Of a stretch of DNA of 64,000 nucleotides, positions 19,561 through 28,417 are shown piece after piece. Numbering within the stretch: the first letter of the stretch is position 1; the number at the start of each line of letters is the position of its first letter. The notes below the pieces were generated by a model that was not told where the DNA came from, made no database searches, and saw only the letters and a list, made by a program, of their open reading frames with translations. The position numbers were made by a program, and so were the translations under genes. The stretch spans positions 43,445 to 107,444 of the forward strand of contig CAVYUC010000017.1 in the NCBI GenBank assembly GCA_963771595.1. Direction: 5' to 3'. This stretch comes from an uncultured Prolixibacteraceae bacterium. GTDB taxonomy: Bacteria; Bacteroidota; Bacteroidia; Bacteroidales; Prolixibacteraceae.

Positions 19561-20331
19561 ATGAATAAAACAGCACTCATAACCGGAGGCTCACGTGGAA
19601 TAGGTTTTGGAATTGCCCTTGAGTTGGCAAAAGCAGGATTTAGTCTTGCAATAAATGGCGTGCGACAACAAGAAGCAGTTCAACCCATTCTGGACGGACT
19701 AAAAATGTTTGGCCACAAAGTAATTTATGCACAAGGTAACATTTCTAAAAAAGAGGACAGGCAAAAAATCTTTGATGCAGTAATTTCTGAATTCGGCCAT
19801 TTAAATGTTTTGGTGAATAATGCCGGAATTGCACCGCGCGAACGCAAGGACATTCTGGAAGCTACCGAAGATATTTTCGACGAAGTTTTGGAAACCAATC
19901 TGAAAGGACCCTATTTCCTGACGCAGCTTTTCGCCAACCACATGGTTCAGCAAAAAAGGGAGTATCCCGGTTTTTCATGTTGTATCATCAATGTTTCGTC
20001 GGTTTCTGCAACTGTAGCTTCCACAAACCGTGGGGAATATTGCATCTCCAAAGCCGGTATTGCCATGGCGACTAAGCTTTGGACAGCCCGGCTGGGAGAG
20101 TTTGAAATTCCGGTATATGAAATTCAACCCGGAGTTATAAAAACCGATATGACTTCAGCCGTAACCGAAAAATATGATCGTATGTTTGAGGAAGGTTTAA
20201 CCATTCAAAAACGATGGGGGTTGCCGGTGGATGTTGGCAAAGTGGCTGCTGCAATGGCCACCGGAATGCTGCCCTACTCCACCGGCCAGGTGGTGATGGT
20301 GGATGGGGGAATGACCATTCAACGATTATAA
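19561..20331 (+). CDS. Short-chain dehydrogenase/reductase (SDR)
   Basis: Motifs are TGGSRGIGFGIA, NNAG, the catalytic YCISKAG and a PG motif. The upstream 25 codons of the long ORF run through a REP-like hairpin and are unlikely to be coding. Confidence 0.85.
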   Translation: MNKTALITGGSRGIGFGIALELAKAGFSLAINGVRQQEAVQPILDGLKMFGHKVIYAQGNISKKEDRQKIFDAVISEFGHLNVLVNNAGIAPRERKDILEATEDIFDEVLETNLKGPYFLTQLFANHMVQQKREYPGFSCCIINVSSVSATVASTNRGEYCISKAGIAMATKLWTARLGEFEIPVYEIQPGVIKTDMTSAVTEKYDRMFEEGLTIQKRWGLPVDVGKVAAAMATGMLPYSTGQVVMVDGGMTIQRL

Positions 20332-20353
20332 AGAAGGCCCTCCTGACCTTCCG
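20332..20353 (+). repeat. 22-nt post-gene motif AGAAGSCCCTCCTGACYTTCSG, copy 2
   Basis: It starts immediately after the SDR stop codon and is followed by ...CTGAGAGGAG, which can pair with CCTCCTGA. Confidence 0.65.
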
Positions 20354-20419
20354 CCAACTAGCTGAGAGGAGAAAGAATAAAAAACAAGACAATATTGAAC
20401 TTCAATAAAACTAAATCGA

Positions 20420-20641
20420 ATGAAAAGAAATAAACGAATCTGGCAATTTTGTGTCGCTGCAGTTATTGTTATTATAGCAATTACATTTTCCCCGCTGGTA
20501 ATTGCTCCGGGAAAAATCCAACCCTTTTTATTTGGATTACCCTACACACTTTGGATAGGAATAGTACTTACCATCGTCTTGGTCGTAATTACTTTAATCG
20601 CAGGAAATGCTTTACCAAACGATGAGGAGGGCCGGAAATGA
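20420..20641 (+). CDS. DUF3311-like small membrane protein, accessory to the sodium:solute symporter
   Basis: It is 73 aa with two TM helices. An ATGA overlap joins it to the symporter start, a characteristic pairing. Confidence 0.65.
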   Translation: MKRNKRIWQFCVAAVIVIIAITFSPLVIAPGKIQPFLFGLPYTLWIGIVLTIVLVVITLIAGNALPNDEEGRK

Positions 20642-22036
20642 TTACATGGGTTATCATTATGTTTGCCGGATTTATATCACTGCTTGTACTGGCATCCATA
20701 AAATCATACAAAAAAAACAGAAGTTCGCAGGAGTTTATGCTGGCTGGTTCCAGCCTGGGCGTATTCCTTGGATTCATGACTTTCTCGGCAGCTTTATTCA
20801 GCGCTTTTACCTTTCAGGGAATGCCCGATTTCTTCCGGACACATGGAATCGGGGCATGGATTTTCCTTGCGTTCTCTGATGGGGTAATGGTATTTTTCAT
20901 CCTCTGGTTTGGAAGAAAACTGCGCCACAAAGCCAGGCAAAAAGGATTCAGGGGAATTGCAGGTTTGATGGCCGACATTTACGGAACCCGCTGGGCCGGA
21001 TATGCCCTTTTCCTGAGTTCATTTTTATTTCTGATTCCTTATGCAGCGATTCAGATTAGGGGCATCTCTGTTTTTTTTGATGCAGCATTTCCCAACTTTT
21101 TACCCCGCTGGGGGTGGTCGCTCATCCTCGTGGTTTTTATGATTTTATATGCCGAAATTGGCGGATTCAAGGCAATGGTTTACAGCGATGCCATTCAGGG
21201 AACGATTTTGCTGGTGGTACTTTGGCTTATTGCCACCACCTGTATTTCAAAATTGGGCGGGGTGCAGGGCATGTTCGAAAAGGTACAGGCAACCAATGAA
21301 GCACTGCTTTCCACCCCGGGGCCAAAAGGACTTTTTACCTGGCAGTTTCTTATTGGGAAGCACCATTGCCGTGGTAATGATTCCGGTTACGCAGCCGCAA
21401 ATGGGTACCCGGCTGGTGGTGATGAAAAGTCTGAAATCGATGAAACGGATGGCATTTGCCGTGGGTACTTTTGCCATTGTGATTATTGCTGCAACTATTT
21501 TTATAGGGATGTACGGTTCAGTGGTTTATCCCAATGCATCCGCTCAGGAATTCTGGGCAAAAGCTTTGTTATACGACCAGTTTGCACCGGTGGCCGGACT
21601 CGCAGTGGTTGGTTTGTTTGCAGCGTGTCTTTCTACCACCAATTCACAAATATTTGCTTTGGGAAACGAACTGCGTTCGCTGTTACCCGACGATGAAAAA
21701 AAATCGATGCGAATCACCAAAATCTTCCTCTTTGTATTTTCTGTGCTGGTTATGATTTTTGCTTCGCTGATGGGCGACCAGATTGCATTGCTGGCACGGG
21801 TAAGTTTTACCGGCACCTCCATGTTTGCACCTGTGGTCCTGGCTGCTGTTGCTATGCGTGGCAAACCGGGAATCGAACTAATTGTGATATCATTTACCGC
21901 ATTACTGGTCTTCCTGGGTTCACTGGCGGGAGTTATTCCCACTAAGGTTGGTGCCATTCAGCTGGATATATTGCTGTATCTGGTTATTACGGTTGCCACC
22001 ATAGTTTCCATACTATTAAGGAAAAGTGGTAATTGA
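20638..22036 (+). pseudogene. Sodium:solute symporter (SSS family) interrupted by a 1-nt frameshift
   Basis: The N-terminal 2/3 is in frame 1 (20638 onward, good TM sequence up to ...GLFTWQFLIG). The C-terminal 1/3 continues seamlessly in frame 2 (...STIAVVMIPVTQPQMGTRLVV... to 22036). After the junction the frame-1 product turns into Cys/Arg-rich junk. Confidence 0.8.
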
Positions 22037-22105
22037 AATAACTATGGATACTTCAGACAGAAGGATTCACATACAAATCATGCCCAGATTGGTGCAGGAA
22101 TCTAT

Positions 22106-23380
22106 CTAATCCATCATCTCAAACCCGCAATACGGAACCAAAACCTTCGGAATTTTTATTCCTTCCGGAGTCTGATTGTTTTCAAGCAGGGCAGCCACTA
22201 TACGCGGTAAGGCCAGTGCGCTGCCATTTAATGTATGCGCCAGCTGTGGCTTTTTGCTGTTTTCGTCGCGGTAACGCAGTTTCAGGCGGTTGGCCTGGAA
22301 CGACTCGAAGTTGGAAACCGAACTTACCTCCAGCCACATTTTCTGAGCTGCAGAAAACACTTCGAAATCGTAAGTTAATGCCGAAGTAAAACTCATGTCA
22401 CCACCACACAGGCGCAAAATACGGTAAGGCAGTTCCAGCTTTTCTACCAGACCGGCAACATGCTGTACCATCTGCTCCAGTACCTCATATGATTTATCGG
22501 GATGTGCTATCTGCACGACTTCCACCTTATCGAACTGGTGAAGGCGGTTCAACCCCCGGACATCCTTTCCGTAGGAACCGGCTTCCCGACGGAAACAGGC
22601 GCTGTAAGCTGTATTTTTATAAGGTAGGTCTTTTGCATTCAGAATTACATCACGGTAAATATTGGTAACCGGCACTTCGGCTGTTGGAATCAGATACAGA
22701 TTATCTTCCGTTACATGGTACATTTGTCCTTCCTTATCGGGTAATTGTCCCGTTCCAAAACCCGATGCCTCATTCACCATTAATGGCGGTTGAATTTCCT
22801 CATAACCCGCTTCCCGGGCTTCGGCAAGAAAAAAATTGATAAGCGCCCGCTGCAGTTGTGCCCCTTTACCACGATATACCGGGAAACCTGCACCGGTAAG
22901 TTTTACGCCCAACTCAAAATCAATCAGCTTATATTTTGCAGCAAGTTCCCAATGCGGAAGTGCATTTTCTGCCAGTTGCGGAATTTCACCTTTCGAAGCC
23001 ACAATTTCATTATCAGATGCACCTTTTCCTTCAGGAACTGAATCATGCGGCAAATTGGGAAGCTGTACAAGCAACTGGTATACTTTTTCTTCTATTTCAG
23101 CAAATTGCTGTTCGTATGATTTTATGTTTTCTTTTAAAAGGGTAGTGTGTTCTTTTGCTGCATTTGCCTCTCCCGTTTTTCCTTCCCTGAATAGTTTTCC
23201 GATTTCTGCTGAAATCCTGTTCATTTCGGCTTTTGCCTGATCGGTTTGTCCCTGCAGTTTATTTTTTTGCTGATACAATCCGGTAATGGAATTTACAATT
23301 TCCTTCGCATCAAAATTTTTGCGTTTCAGCTTTTCGATAACCAGTTCCGGATTATCCTGGATGAATTTCAGATTGAGCAT
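22106..23380 (-). CDS. serS: Seryl-tRNA synthetase
   Basis: It has an N-terminal coiled-coil arm and class II motifs (FRREAGS, GLNRLHQFDKVE, GSALALPRIVAALLEN). Confidence 0.95.
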   Translation of the reverse strand: MLNLKFIQDNPELVIEKLKRKNFDAKEIVNSITGLYQQKNKLQGQTDQAKAEMNRISAEIGKLFREGKTGEANAAKEHTTLLKENIKSYEQQFAEIEEKVYQLLVQLPNLPHDSVPEGKGASDNEIVASKGEIPQLAENALPHWELAAKYKLIDFELGVKLTGAGFPVYRGKGAQLQRALINFFLAEAREAGYEEIQPPLMVNEASGFGTGQLPDKEGQMYHVTEDNLYLIPTAEVPVTNIYRDVILNAKDLPYKNTAYSACFRREAGSYGKDVRGLNRLHQFDKVEVVQIAHPDKSYEVLEQMVQHVAGLVEKLELPYRILRLCGGDMSFTSALTYDFEVFSAAQKMWLEVSSVSNFESFQANRLKLRYRDENSKKPQLAHTLNGSALALPRIVAALLENNQTPEGIKIPKVLVPYCGFEMMD

Positions 23381-23520
23381 GTTTTTCTTTTTAAATAGAT
23401 TGTAAAATTAATAAATGAAACGGCACAACATGAAATTCGCAAATGTAAATTGAGCAGAGGGACAAAAAGGTTAATCTTGTGCAGTTATATTATGAAATGT
23501 AGTGGGTTGATGGCCCTTTT

Positions 23521-23727
23521 TTAGTGATGTGTTTTCATTCCTTTTTTTCTTCGTACAAAAAAATAAAGAATTACTGCAACTGAGATAAACCAAAACACAA
23601 TACCAGTTTTAATAAATACCGCTCCATTCGGATAATGCTGAAGTTTGAAAAAATACCCGGTAAGACTCAGGAGTGCAGAAACAATCAGTAAAATAACGAT
23701 TAAGGTAGTTGCTTGATTTTTGGCCAT
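23521..23727 (-). CDS. Small two-TM membrane protein, unknown function
   Basis: It is 68 aa from MAKNQ, with two hydrophobic helices flanking KLQHYPNGA, which resembles the GldL-like K(I/L)xHWPGA motif. It has a basic C-terminus. Confidence 0.45.
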   Translation of the reverse strand: MAKNQATTLIVILLIVSALLSLTGYFFKLQHYPNGAVFIKTGIVFWFISVAVILYFFVRRKKGMKTHH

Positions 23728-23775
23728 GATATGTTGCACTTTGATTTATCCAAAGCTAAGAATTTTTCTACTTTC

Positions 23776-23813
23776 CAAAAACAAAAAACGCCTGCCATTG
23801 CTGGCAAGCGTTT
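23776..23813 (-). terminator. Intrinsic terminator of rplU-rpmA
   Basis: On the minus strand AAACGCTTGCCA-gcaa-TGGCAGGCGTTT forms a 12-bp stem with one G.U. It is followed by TTTTTGTTTTT, ~30 nt after the rpmA stop. Confidence 0.8.
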
Positions 23814-23844
23814 CATTATATTATGAATAAAAATCCGGAGATTT

Positions 23845-24423
23845 TTATTTTGACAGCTCTTTTGCTTTTTCTATCCAGGGTGCCGGATCTTTTGAAGCAT
23901 AGCGGCTTCCTGCATTTTCAAGGATCTCTTTCATTTTCTCTTCTGACGTTGAAGCCAAATCCGAATAGGTATTTATCCCTGCTTCATTTAGTACTTCCTC
24001 CAGTTTCGGGCCAATACCTTCAATCTCTTTTAAATCACTGGCAGCTGATTTTTCTTTCGCCGCAGCTTTTTCTTCCTTATTATCAGCTTTAGCCTCTTTC
24101 TTTTCCGCTTTTTCTTTTACTTCTGCTTTTTCTGCAACAGGAGCTTCAGCAACTGCCGTATCTGTTTCAACAATTGGAGCAACCGAAATATAGGAGCGGT
24201 TTTTCTTTTTTCTTTTGAATACAACTGTTCCGTCGACCAATGCAAAAAGGGTATGATCTTTTCCCATTCCTACATTTTCTCCCGGGTTATGTTGAGTACC
24301 ACGCTGGCGAACTAAAATATTACCAGCTTTTGCAAACTGACCGCCGTAAATTTTTACACCAAGTCTTTTGCTTTCCGATTCGCGTCCGTTTTTCGAACTA
24401 CCTACACCTTTCTTATGAGCCAT
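23845..24423 (-). CDS. rpmA: 50S ribosomal protein L27 with ~100-aa C-terminal extension (A/E/K linker + HhH-like domain)
   Basis: The N-terminal 88 aa are canonical L27 ([24 protein letters not shown]...[16 protein letters not shown]). The frame stays open for another 104 codons, ending in [27 protein letters not shown]. Confidence 0.85.
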
Positions 24424-24441
24424 GGTAAATTATCTTTTTAG

Positions 24442-24753
24442 TTATCCAACAATATCTTCAATTTGTATCTGCATGAAATTCTGGCGGTGACCATTTAATT
24501 TCTGGTACCCTTTTCTTCTTTTCTTTTTAAATACAAGAACTTTGTCACCTTTCACCTGTCCCAGCACTTTGGCTGTAACTTTTGCACCTTTTACCGCCGG
24601 CGTGCCAACAGTAATACCATCATCGTTGCCAAATAGCAACACTTTCTCAAAATCAACTGAATCGCCTTCTTTGGCATCCAGCAACTGAACATACAGTTTC
24701 TTGTCTTTTTCAACCCTGAACTGCTGACCTGCAATCTCTACAATCGCGTACAT
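24442..24753 (-). CDS. rplU: 50S ribosomal protein L21
   Basis: The sequence is MYAIVEIAGQQFRVEKDKKLYV...KKKRRKGYQKLNGHRQ, 103 aa. Confidence 0.95.
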   Translation of the reverse strand: MYAIVEIAGQQFRVEKDKKLYVQLLDAKEGDSVDFEKVLLFGNDDGITVGTPAVKGAKVTAKVLGQVKGDKVLVFKKKRRKGYQKLNGHRQNFMQIQIEDIVG

Positions 24754-24838
24754 AATTTCAAATTTAACGTTTACACCGGCAGGCGGGATTCCCGTTGGAT
24801 TCCTCTTGTTAAGCCTGAACGATTCATTTTTCGGACTG

Positions 24839-24875
24839 CAAAAGTAGTTATTTTTAAATATTTGGCAAATATTCA
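24839..24875 (-). promoter_or_regulatory. Candidate Bacteroidota sigma-A promoter for rplU-rpmA
   Basis: The minus strand reads TTG-N19-TACTTTTG, matching TTG/TAnnTTTG. The -7 box lies at 24839-24846 and leaves a ~80-nt leader. Confidence 0.4.
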
Positions 24876-25015
24876 GGTATTTATTTCCAAAGGAATGGCC
24901 AAATCCTCCTTCCCTCTGATTTCATAACAGAAAATCAATTATCGACTCTAATTTTCGACATAACTAAAAATGATTACTATCTTTGTTTTACATTAAAAAA
25001 TCACGCAAAAGAAGG

Positions 25016-25609
25016 ATGCAAAAAATTCGGTTAAATATCCTGGGACTCTCTGTAAGTCAAACGCAATCAGGTGCTTATGCGCTGGTATTGGCTGAGGAAA
25101 ACGGAGACAGGAGAATTCCTATTATAATCGGGCCGGTTGAAGCCCAGGCAATTGCCATACAACTGGAAGGGTTGAAACCACCGCGCCCTTTAACCCACGA
25201 TTTAATTAAAAATATTGCCCTTGCATTTGATATTACCCTGCTGGAAGTGACTATTTTTAAACTGGAAGAAGGTATCTTCTTTTCGGAATTGCTGTGCAGG
25301 ATGAATGGTAAGGAAACACGCATCGATTCGCGAACTTCGGATGCCGTTGCGCTGGCGTTACGCTTTAAATGCCCGATTTACACCACCGAGGAAATTCTTA
25401 CAAAAGCCGGAATTGTGCTGGAAATGGATGAATCGGGTTCGCCGGATACCAGCAAATATGAAAAGTCGCCCGAACCTTCAAGTTCATCTCCTTTCTCTCA
25501 TTACACCATGCAGGAACTGGAAGATATGCTGAATGAAGCCGTTCACAACGAAGATTACGAAAAAGCTTCGGTTATACGGGATGAAATTCACAACCGGAAA
25601 AAAAATTAA
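25016..25609 (+). CDS. Bifunctional nuclease (DUF151/BFN) family protein with C-terminal UVR motif
   Basis: It has the BFN core QSGAYALVLAEENGDRRIPIIIGPVEAQAIA...PRPLTHDL and a C-terminal UvrB/C-like helix, EDYEKASVIRDEI. Confidence 0.75.
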   Translation: MQKIRLNILGLSVSQTQSGAYALVLAEENGDRRIPIIIGPVEAQAIAIQLEGLKPPRPLTHDLIKNIALAFDITLLEVTIFKLEEGIFFSELLCRMNGKETRIDSRTSDAVALALRFKCPIYTTEEILTKAGIVLEMDESGSPDTSKYEKSPEPSSSSPFSHYTMQELEDMLNEAVHNEDYEKASVIRDEIHNRKKN

Positions 25610-25676
25610 GCCGCTGAAAAAACAAATAAACCAAATATTGAATTGAAAACCAGGTTACTCATCTAATTATCCGCAA

Positions 25677-27137
25677 GTGAAGAATATAATTGTATTGCTG
25701 GTATTTTGTACCGGCATTTTATTTTTTAAGCCAGCCTTTTCACAAATTCCTGATTCAACCAAAAGTCAATCCGAACAATTGCTTCAGCAGGAAGAAAGTG
25801 CTGACACTTCTGTACTTCTGCTGTCAAAAGAAAAAGAAAATCCATTCTCGATCGTCACTTTATTTCGCGGACTGCTGGGAATGGCAGTGCTTTTATTTTT
25901 GGGATTTATCTTGAGTAGCGACAGGCGGAATATTCCCTGGCGCACGGTATTTATCGGATTAATCATCCAGTTGCTGCTAGCCATCGGAGTTTTATACATT
26001 CCTTTTATACGGGTTATCTTTGAATTCTTTGGGCAGATTTTTGTAAAAATTCTCGATTTTACCACAGCAGGAAGCGAATTTCTGTTGGGAGATTTAATGA
26101 ATGCAGATACCTACGGGTTTATATTCCTGTTCCAGGTGTTGCCAACCATTATATTCTTTTCGGCATTAACCAGCCTTCTTTTTTACTGGGGAATTATTCA
26201 GAAAGTAGTGTATGGCCTGGCCTGGGTATTTACAAAAGCACTGAAAATTTCGGGAGCCGAAGCGCTCTCAGTGGCCGGTAATATTTTTCTTGGCCAAACC
26301 GAATCGCCCCTAATGATAAAAGCCTATCTCGAAAAAATGAGCAAATCGGAAATCCTGCTGGTAATGACAGGCGGTATGGCAACATTGGCGGGAGGCGTTT
26401 TGGCGGCGTATATTGCTTTGCTGGGTGGCGACGATCCGGTTCTGCGGCTCGAATTCGCCAAACATTTACTTGCCGCCTCCGTAATGGCAGCGCCTGCAGC
26501 CATCATCTTTTCCAAAATGCTGGTGCCACCAACAGAGGCCATTAACAAACAAATTGAAGTCAGCCGCGACAAAATCGGGAGCAATGTTTTGGATGCCATA
26601 ACCAACGGCACCAGTCAGGGCGTGCGGCTTGCCGTTAATGTAGCTGCCATGCTGCTGGCGTTTATCGCATTTATTGCCATGTTCAATTTTATCGTTGGTA
26701 AAATAGGCCAGTGGACGCACCTGAACCAGTTAATAATGGAAGGCACAAATGGCAGGTACGACGGACTATCGCTGCAGTTTATCCTCGGCTACACCTTTGC
26801 CCCGCTCATGTGGCTGATAGGTGTTGGAACGGAAGATATTATCGTTGTAGGCCGGTTACTGGGCGAAAAGCTAATCTTAACCGAATTTATCGGGTACATC
26901 AGCCTGGCCGATTTAAAAGCTGCAGGAGTTTTTGTGCACCCGAAATCAATCATTATGGCCACTTATATTTTATGCGGCTTCGCCAATTTCTCTTCCATTG
27001 GAATCCAGATTGGCGGTATTGGAGCGCTTGCACCGGGGCGGCGTGTTTTGCTTTCAAAATATGGTGTACCTGCACTTATTGCAGGCACACTCGCTTCACT
27101 GATGTCGGCAACTATTATCGGAATGATTATGGGCTAA
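25677..27137 (+). CDS. nupC: Concentrative nucleoside transporter (NupC/CNT family)
   Basis: It has a GTG start and is polytopic. Conserved CNT blocks are GSEFLLG, VAGNIFLGQTESPL, MTGGMATLAGGVLAAY and ANFSSIGIQIGG. The N-terminal extension is ~60 aa. Confidence 0.85.
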   Translation: MKNIIVLLVFCTGILFFKPAFSQIPDSTKSQSEQLLQQEESADTSVLLLSKEKENPFSIVTLFRGLLGMAVLLFLGFILSSDRRNIPWRTVFIGLIIQLLLAIGVLYIPFIRVIFEFFGQIFVKILDFTTAGSEFLLGDLMNADTYGFIFLFQVLPTIIFFSALTSLLFYWGIIQKVVYGLAWVFTKALKISGAEALSVAGNIFLGQTESPLMIKAYLEKMSKSEILLVMTGGMATLAGGVLAAYIALLGGDDPVLRLEFAKHLLAASVMAAPAAIIFSKMLVPPTEAINKQIEVSRDKIGSNVLDAITNGTSQGVRLAVNVAAMLLAFIAFIAMFNFIVGKIGQWTHLNQLIMEGTNGRYDGLSLQFILGYTFAPLMWLIGVGTEDIIVVGRLLGEKLILTEFIGYISLADLKAAGVFVHPKSIIMATYILCGFANFSSIGIQIGGIGALAPGRRVLLSKYGVPALIAGTLASLMSATIIGMIMG

Positions 27138-27166
27138 TCAAAAACCAGACAAAATACAATCAGAAT

Positions 27167-28417
27167 TTAATCCAGTTTATGAATCACAAGTCCTGACCGC
27201 AGCTTCGGCTCGAACCATGTGGTTTTTGGCGGCATAATATTTCCGCTGTCGGCAATGTTGATCAATTGTTGCATTGAAACCGGATACAGCGCAAATGCAG
27301 CTTTCATTTTCCCTGAATCCACCCGCTTTTTCAATTCGGCCAATCCCCGTATTCCACCCACAAAATCAATCCGATCTGAAGTACGTAAATCTTTAATCCC
27401 GAGAATGGGCTCCAATACCTGGTTGGATAAAACAGTTACATCCAGCACACCAATTGGATCCCAGTCGTTGTAGGTTTCTTCCTTTGCCGCAAGTTTATAC
27501 CAGTTTCCGGAAAGATACATGCTAAATTCATGCAGTTTTGTTGGTTTAAATATTTCGGCGCCAATTTTTTCCACTTTAAAACCATTTTCAAGTTTCAGCA
27601 GAAATTCCTCATCGGTTAATCCGTTTAGATCGGTTACCACGCGGTTGTAATCAATAATTTGAAGCTGGTCATCCGGAAAATGAACCGCCATAAAATAGTT
27701 ATATTCCTCATCTCCTGAATGATTTGGATTTTGCGATGTCTTTTCAATGCCGATTCTTGCAGCGGCGGCTGTGCGGTGGTGCCCATCTGCAACATAAGTA
27801 TACGGCACTTTATTTGAAAACAGCAACTCCAGTTCTTTTATTACTTTATCATTGTCAATCACCCAAAAATGATGACCAAAACCGTCTTCGGCTGTAAAAT
27901 CGTAAACCGGGGGATTTTCCTTAATTACATTTTCTACAATCTGATCAATTTCAGGGATGGCTTTGTAGGCAAAAAACACCGGCTCAATATTCGCATCCAG
28001 ATAGCGGGTAAGTACCATCCGGTCATCCTCTTTTTCGGGCCGTGTTAATTCATGTTTTTTAATGATTCCGTTTTGATAATCGGCACAGGCGGCAGCCCCC
28101 ACAATTCCATACTGGGTGCGCCCGTACATGGTTTGGGCATAGATGTAATATTTAGGTCTTTCATCCTGCTTCAGCCATTGTTTTTCCTGAAACAGGTTAA
28201 AATTGTACTTTGCTTTCTCATAAACTTTTTCGGAATGAACATCCTCCACATCCGGGAGTTCAATTTCCGCCTTTGTAATCCGCAGCAGCGATTTTTCTTT
28301 TCCGTCAGCCATTTGTGCTGCTTCTTCAGCATTCATCACATCATACGGAAGACAAACCAGTTCTTCCACAATTTCCTTTGAAGGCCGCAGCCCTTTAAAC
28401 GGTTTTATTGTAGCCAT
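27167..28417 (-). CDS. DUF1015-family protein (unknown function), last gene of the serC-serA cluster
   Basis: It is ~416 aa, starting MATIKPFKGLRP, with ADGHHRTAAA and FEPK motifs remembered from DUF1015. Confidence 0.7.
   Translation of the reverse strand: MATIKPFKGLRPSKEIVEELVCLPYDVMNAEEAAQMADGKEKSLLRITKAEIELPDVEDVHSEKVYEKAKYNFNLFQEKQWLKQDERPKYYIYAQTMYGRTQYGIVGAAACADYQNGIIKKHELTRPEKEDDRMVLTRYLDANIEPVFFAYKAIPEIDQIVENVIKENPPVYDFTAEDGFGHHFWVIDNDKVIKELELLFSNKVPYTYVADGHHRTAAAARIGIEKTSQNPNHSGDEEYNYFMAVHFPDDQLQIIDYNRVVTDLNGLTDEEFLLKLENGFKVEKIGAEIFKPTKLHEFSMYLSGNWYKLAAKEETYNDWDPIGVLDVTVLSNQVLEPILGIKDLRTSDRIDFVGGIRGLAELKKRVDSGKMKAAFALYPVSMQQLINIADSGNIMPPKTTWFEPKLRSGLVIHKLD

Follow-up and report, generated by a model that had tools for sequence, protein, structure and literature searches.

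A helix–hairpin–helix module at the C-terminus of ribosomal protein bL27 in a Prolixibacteraceae bacterium: a candidate ribosome-to-nucleoid tether

The rpmA gene of an uncultured Prolixibacteraceae bacterium encodes, in a single reading frame, a genuine ribosomal bL27 core followed by a disordered linker and a C-terminal helix–hairpin–helix (HhH) module. The gene lies in a 64,000-nucleotide stretch of contig CAVYUC010000017.1 (assembly GCA_963771595.1), hereafter the window, and the coordinates of its parts and neighbours are collected in Table 1. Long bL21 and uS2 proteins with a tail of this kind are already known from curated models, and L27 fusions have been deposited under the plain L27 name; a literature search on L27/bL27 HhH or C-terminal extensions in Bacteroidota and on COG3743 turned up no paper that deals with this module on ribosomal proteins. 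The fusion described here is not unique but adds one more case to a tag that is widespread and has been little studied. Judged by homology, the tail may serve as a flexible tether between ribosome and nucleoid.

Table 1 Features of the rpmA locus, in window coordinates
Feature	Position	Strand	Remarks
rplU (bL21)	24442..24753	-	103 aa, normal length; Pfam Ribosomal_L21p 4.9e-38; directly upstream of rpmA, same operon
rpmA, whole ORF	23845..24423	-	192 codons + stop; sole L27 gene in genome
bL27 core, aa 1-85	24169..24423	-	PF01016 127.7 bits; TIGR00062 119 bits; canonical N-terminus
Linker, aa 86-128	24040..24168	-	Conserved 'AVAEAP' start, then low-complexity A/E/K; net charge -2
HhH module, aa 129-192 (64 aa)	23848..24039	-	HHH_5 28.8 bits; COG3743/PhaH-tail type; net charge -5, pI 4.6
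Intrinsic-terminator-like hairpin	23814..23785	-	13-bp stem with 6 GC pairs, then T-run; 3' of extended stop

By every sequence test run, the rpmA product belongs with bL27. The Pfam L27 family (PF01016) matches amino acids 2-81 at 1.7e-37 (127.7 bits, cut-off 20.5) and TIGR00062 covers the whole core, the cut-off here being 90.35 bits. The protein has an A-H-K-K-G-type N-terminus with no Prp-type propeptide, the rplU–rpmA order is kept, with a gap of 18 nt between the two genes, and PF01016 matches only once in this genome, which is 97.5% complete. Equally, a search with a profile of the HhH module found a single copy in the genome, the one inside rpmA.

The first-pass annotation of this DNA had proposed that L27 is fused here to a C-terminal HhH extension of about 100 amino acids at positions 23845-24159, reached through an A/E/K-rich linker, and that the terminator follows the extended stop. 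These proposals hold. There is one ORF of 192 codons, within which PF01016 and HHH_5 both score above cut-off; the interval corresponds to codons 89-192 plus the stop, whilst the short-form L27 proteins of relatives stop 2-6 residues past '...SYVSVEP', at 86-88 aa; and the linker is low in complexity and predicted to be disordered. The terminator-like hairpin lies 30 nt beyond the extended stop and is the only one of its kind on the minus strand here, a scan of that strand having found none in the vicinity of codon 90. The extension had also been described as lying in AT-rich DNA. That merely reflects the genome at large, GC content being 0.41 in core, linker, module and whole window alike, and a foreign composition of the extension is thereby ruled out. 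In positions 20000..28000 no RNA family matched at or above its gathering score.

Might the long frame nevertheless be an artefact, produced by a lost stop, a shift of frame or the wrong joining of a downstream gene during assembly? The chance of this is vanishingly small. We found no point in its support, and against it stands the recurrence of the same unbroken frame in over 20 genomes assembled independently of one another and in over 100 database proteins, which rules out an assembly artefact or lost stop, together with the placing of the terminator 3' of the long ORF and the uniform composition across it. A module encoded by a separate downstream gene in relatives was likewise ruled out by searching about 1.2 kb around rpmA in six frames with the module profile: no remnant or copy of the module was seen in any frame at short-form, linker-only or Lys/Ala/Pro-tail loci. 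The fusion is conserved within a clade.

Searching 5.8 billion proteins gave more than 100 of 174-222 aa and 61-76% identity in which L27 and HHH_5 are both present, including proteins from Mariniphaga, Maribellus and Tangfeifania deposited simply as L27. Within the Prolixibacteraceae (121 genomes), seven of the 36 genera have long L27 frames, of 180-222 aa. The remaining L27 frames in these genomes measure 86-108 aa, apart from four intermediates of 120-144 aa, all in the same seven genera, three of which have linker-only tails and one of which is cut at a contig end. Order-wide, nearly all L27 frames in 151 genomes are of 85-100 aa. Further L27 fusions were found in Saprospiraceae, Lewinellaceae, Anseongella and Draconibacterium mangrovi.

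Translations of the long forms follow a common plan, in which the core leads into the conserved 'AVAEAP', then a freely varying low-complexity linker of 36-67 aa and finally a conserved module of about 63 aa. The module is clearly under purifying selection while the linker drifts freely: dN/dS for the module is 0.06-0.3 (Nei–Gojobori method, 58 codons, 31 unsaturated pairs), and not one of the 121 long L27 proteins listed, among them that of the window, is without the folded module. Some species in three genera have no module, and two genera have linker-only forms of 115-142 aa. Such repeated loss in close relatives implies that the module is dispensable.

In one genus the module has a counterpart of a quite different kind. 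Four of its species carry a Lys/Ala/Pro-rich, histone-H1-like tail of 94-134 aa on L27, with a net charge of +12 to +19, and two others (L012 and L028) bear the HhH module at the same L27 position. The Lys/Ala/Pro-tailed proteins (L009, L016, L020 and L023, from genomes G007, G216, G236 and G255) are 179-219 aa long and have no HhH module. A further L27 protein, of 190 aa, from another family of the order (L029, genome G095) ends in a non-homologous, repetitive acidic 'ETPV...' extension, which shows that tails of other kinds too are tolerated at this end of L27.

Trees were built on the first 62 columns of the module. Modules of the long L27 proteins returned by the protein search group into one clade (support 0.93), split at its base into five full-length and 100 truncated copies (support 0.97), and this clade nests with modules borne by other Bacteroidota ribosomal proteins. 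With so few columns the trees can do no more than lend support to a single acquisition in this lineage, the last helix having been lost afterwards.

As to the identity of the module, the first-pass annotation had pointed to DUF4332/HHH_5-like HhH domains. The HHH_5 half of this is upheld: PF14520 matches aa 129-167 with 28.8 bits, a marginal pass against a cut-off of 27, the hairpin signature h-x-x-h-x-G-h-G-x-x-x-A is present, and relatives score 30-38 bits. The DUF4332 half is not, since PF14229 reaches only 17.6 bits against a cut-off of 23.2; L048, a true DUF4332 protein from a relative, gives only a weak match to the module profile. TfoX_C, Cdd1 and the RNA polymerase alpha CTD gave sub-threshold matches. 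On profile evidence, the module belongs to the COG3743/PhaH-tail family, as a truncated member. It corresponds to positions 2-67 of the 81-position profile (A1), breaks off at about position 62-67 of the 80-aa family module and is without the terminal helix (LAA-G-W--L---QD-L-GG) of the latter; only seven of the 121 listed long L27 proteins, counting the window's, reach position 80, and one genus (L004, L018) still has the module complete.

The family is very large. The A1 profile finds 11,789 clusters at E <= 0.001 among 1.84 billion representatives, and many members have 2-25 tandem copies joined by linkers. Source databases name them 'helix-hairpin-helix domain-containing protein' or, at JGI, 'predicted flap endonuclease-1-like 5' DNA nuclease', the latter of which we take to be the COG3743 label. 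The best conserved part of the family is the GIGPK hairpin, with K/R at the hairpin in 77% of 796 modules, and the net charge is negative in 98% of L27-borne modules and in all bL17-borne ones.

Several curated NCBIfam models share the tail. Amino acids 86-192 match the last ~100 positions of the long bL21 model NF008916 (2.9e-15) and likewise match NF008915, as well as the C-terminal regions of NF009040 (NuoE), NF045508 (PhaH, 4.2e-9) and NF008966 (uS2), these matches spanning E-values from 2.9e-15 to 3.7e-8. Scored over the whole protein, the PhaH, long bL21, uS2 and NuoE equivalogs give only 33-57 bits against cut-offs of 193-526, because it is the tail alone that is shared; by these scores the rpmA product is not a member of any of the four.

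AlphaFold2 predicts a five-helix fold for the module (pLDDT 84.9). In the full-length model the linker lacks secondary structure, its pLDDT being under 50; the domains take up no fixed orientation (pTM 0.33), and the module is not seen to dock on the core. A Foldseek search of the PDB with the module model gave nothing at E <= 0.001. With VIA-align, scores were middling, and values below about 8-13 are common for small helical domains: the C-terminal domain of POLQ/Hel308 gave Z 9.3 (rmsd 2.8 over 66 residues), the N-terminal domain of Rad51 Z 7.6, the NusA acidic repeats Z 6.4-7.9 and many SAM domains Z about 5. A complex prediction with two copies of the module scored 0.00 and, having been run without controls, counts neither for nor against binding.

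The tail had been thought an unusual ribosome decoration, a view that did not survive comparison with other proteins: the same module occurs on bL21, bL17, bS1 and uS2 and on many non-ribosomal proteins. We surveyed an even sample of 251 Bacteroidota genomes at E <= 1e-5 and found the module in 29. Readable ribosomal hosts were bL21 (seven cases), bL27 (four, this genome counted), bS1 (three) and bL17 (one), and readable non-ribosomal hosts were membrane-anchored coiled-coil proteins (nine) and CBM20/AMPK1_CBM-like proteins (three). More than 100 bL17 fusions are known to us from database searches, among them those of Balneicella halophila, Sphingobacterium spiritivorum, Fluviicola and Crocinitomicaceae. 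Compared with the window's protein, the bL17, bL21 and bS1 fusions share the phylum and the linker-plus-module tail, and the modules on ribosomal proteins cluster in the 62-column tree; they differ in their point of attachment to the ribosome, in having the full 80-residue module and in being more acidic (mean net charge -7.6 on bL17).

Individual hosts are of some interest in their own right. Three bS1 proteins with at least four S1 domains, from another Bacteroidota family, end in a linker and a full 80-residue module (L056:73-1746, L065 and L078, in genomes G397, G473 and G409), and in G409 the bL27 bears it as well as the bS1. Three small proteins (L058:1081-1746, L066 and L067, in genomes G394, G449 and G311) combine an N-terminal CBM20/AMPK1_CBM-like starch- or glycogen-binding domain with a C-terminal module, and could play for glycogen granules the part of the phasin PhaH. 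A further family (L008:1111-1773, L055, L057, L060, L061, L063, L069, L071, L072 and L074) has a single transmembrane helix at the N-terminus, a coiled coil and the module at the C-terminus; it is common in module-bearing Bacteroidota and absent from this genome. A metagenomic protein of 1205 aa (P0160) is of RNA polymerase beta-prime type (Rpb1 domains 3-5) and has three tandem C-terminal modules. The bL17 of Balneicella halophila (L047) matches NF051448, the 'sunset domain variant', over core and linker only, with 139 bits against a cut-off of 280, which implies that there are at least two different long bL17 forms.

Among named systems, the phasin PhaH of Caulobacter crescentus, the primary study of which is reportedly that of Salinas et al. 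2023 (Mol Microbiol 120:307), resembles the long bL27 in plan: its N-terminal part binds the cargo and is joined by a low-complexity linker to a C-terminal HhH module homologous to that of L27. Amino acids 88-190 of the L27 protein align with positions 124-231 of the 234 in NF045508. The resemblance is nevertheless confined to the tail, the match being of 37 bits where the whole-protein cut-off is 250 and the window's module being the shorter by its last helix, and the cargo of PhaH is a PHB granule, where here it would be the ribosome, by way of the bL27 core. NF045508 has no other match elsewhere in this genome. According to a review, the N-terminus of PhaH binds PHB granules whilst its C-terminal HhH domain binds DNA non-specifically, so tying the granules to the nucleoid, and PhaM, PhaF and AlgP bring about the same nucleoid tethering via histone-like tails (PMC13052382). 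The tails of PhaM, PhaF and AlgP are functional analogues only, being non-homologous to the window's tail and basic where it is acidic, but a Lys/Ala/Pro tail of this sort is what the L27 proteins of some sister species bear in place of HhH.

The long forms of bL21 (NF008915/NF008916, PRK12278), uS2 (NF008966, PRK12311) and NuoE (NF009040, PRK12373) likewise join a housekeeping core through low-complexity sequence to a module of the same family, but are mostly alphaproteobacterial, with another core and another module subtype. Their NCBIfam models carry plain core-protein names; the older PRK names describe them as 'unknown domain fusion' proteins. Searches of PDB sequences with the module gave, barring a weak match to eL32, only the unresolved C-terminal domains of RC-LH1 proteins of the protein-O/Urf1 type. 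Protein-O/Urf1 of Dinoroseobacter shibae (8YY9/8YZ2; E 1.1e-10) and the protein-3h precursor of Rhodovulum sulfidophilum (9WQV; E 1.1e-7) each have a homologous C-terminal domain after a long flexible loop, with the differences that a membrane anchor replaces the ribosomal core and that the module is not resolved in the maps. The authors of these structures call the role of the homologous tail domain 'obscure' (PMC12079452, PMC13066640), a word applied also to the function of the NuoE/Urf1 tail (PMC12079452). Haloarchaeal eL32 (NF009401/PRK12766; 1S72 chain Y) is another ribosomal protein with an HhH domain and weakly matches the first hairpin, but its domain is N-terminal and of another HhH family, the E-value is about 0.003-0.1 and the match does not speak for a common origin. 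In the spinach chloroplast ribosome, the C-terminal extension of bL27c adjoins the remodelled H38 on the solvent side (PMC5071890), a geometry that agrees with the solvent-side position envisaged for the extension in the first-pass annotation.

How might such a tail act? The reading that we prefer, at about even odds of being correct, is that it is a flexible tether between the ribosome and the nucleoid, binding DNA non-specifically. The single functional rpmA would then supply a normal bL27 core for assembly into the 50S subunit, with a disordered spacer of ~43 residues holding an independently folded HhH module off the bL27 C-terminus; the tail would give each large subunit a weak, sequence-independent hold on chromosomal DNA, as homology suggests; and that hold, being on a flexible leash, would presumably bias ribosomes towards the nucleoid surface. 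Nucleic-acid binding by the module is plausible from its homology to the PhaH tail. What the analysis shows is the structure of the gene, its conservation and purifying selection, the homology of the tail, the predicted fold and the predicted linker disorder; that the nucleic acid is DNA, and that there is any effect on ribosome position or on transcription–translation coupling, we infer.

Conservation of the fusion and purifying selection on its module speak for the tether, as does the reported DNA binding of the homologous PhaH tail. No part of the module is better conserved than the GIGPK hairpin, the predicted fold is like that of the DNA-binding (HhH)2 domains of POLQ/Hel308 and Rad51, and the module does not dock on the core in the full-length model. 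Its presence at unrelated ribosomal sites (bL21, bL27, bL17 and bS1) and on membrane anchors and CBM20-like proteins fits a ligand outside the ribosome, and the HhH and Lys/Ala/Pro tails on the L27 proteins of a single genus are the same two tail types that phasins use. Against it, an acidic module is unusual for a non-specific DNA binder, and the linker here is neutral to acidic as well. The structural matches are middling and include protein-binding NusA repeats and SAM domains, the last helix of the window's module is missing, PhaH is a distant member of the family whose DNA binding comes to us through a review, structure authors find the NuoE/Urf1 tail 'obscure', and relatives appear to manage without the module. 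A broader reading, that every 50S subunit in the clade bears a leashed, weakly DNA-binding module and that the module is a portable 'nucleoid address tag' used across the Bacteroidota on ribosomes (by way of bL27, bL21, bL17 or bS1), glycogen-binding proteins and membrane anchors, we put forward tentatively and think somewhat more likely wrong than right.

Several of the same observations could be turned to a different end, in which the module is a protein–protein adaptor akin to the NusA acidic (HhH)2 repeats or to SAM domains, bringing a partner to the ribosome or the ribosome to a scaffold and binding no DNA. The net negative charge of nearly all module copies would suit such a role, as would the structural neighbours (NusA AR1/AR2, including the complex of AR2 with alphaCTD, 2jzb, and the many SAM domains), the tandem arrays, which are typical of multivalent scaffolds, and the attachment of the module to very different large assemblies. 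We nonetheless regard an adaptor as unlikely, if deserving of serious attention. With a single module copy in the genome there is no module-bearing partner here, the most conserved feature of the module is the canonical DNA-contacting hairpin, its sole characterised homologue is described in the review cited above as binding DNA, and the strongly basic, histone-like replacement tail of sister species suggests a polyanion as ligand.

That the ligand might be RNA, be it mRNA or the rRNA at the surface of the ribosome itself, so that the tail would be an ordinary lineage-specific extension docking on the particle, is distinctly improbable. Extensions of bL27 can pack on the ribosome, as the spinach protein does by H38, the module is also fused to the mRNA-binding bS1, and there are weak profile matches to the HhH regions of uS13 and eL32. 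An RNA ligand is, however, hard to square with the acidity of the module or with its occurrence at distant ribosomal sites and on the non-ribosomal NuoE, PhaH, CBM20-like proteins and membrane anchors, and a disordered linker that varies in sequence and length misfits one fixed docking site. Still less credence is due to a tail with no specific ligand at all, be it a tolerated passenger or a general modifier of the solubility or charge of the ribosome surface. The repeated loss, shortening or replacement of the tail (linker-only in two genera, Lys/Ala/Pro in a third) and the absence of the last helix from most L27 copies would be expected of a passenger; clear purifying selection on the 58 module codons beside a freely drifting linker would not, and nor would a folded domain in every one of the long L27 proteins listed.

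Ribosomal proteins are among the most conserved known, and a folded extra domain on a cell's sole L27 alters a core machine. The module is portable and has been attached repeatedly, not only to ribosomal proteins at differing sites but also to complex I, RNA polymerase, membrane anchors and proteins of storage granules. Should its ligand be the chromosome, as is reported for PhaH, the fusions point to an unstudied positioning of ribosomes relative to the nucleoid, and if the address-tag reading were true there would be a protein-based route by which translation is kept near transcription, with the cytoplasm organised around the chromosome. Initiation in Bacteroidota is largely without Shine–Dalgarno sequences. 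Close relatives offer natural 'experiments' in which the module has been kept, lost or swapped for a histone-like tail. Should the ligand prove to be something else, the ribosomal fusions would still be the most abundant and most tractable handle on the role of a family of thousands, and the L27 fusion in particular a moderately interesting place from which to work out what this very large orphan module does.

One further feature of the locus may be mentioned. Between the rpmA terminator and serS (22106..23380) there is an ORF of 72 aa at 23521..23739 on the minus strand, a putative gene with no Pfam family above threshold and two predicted hydrophobic helices.
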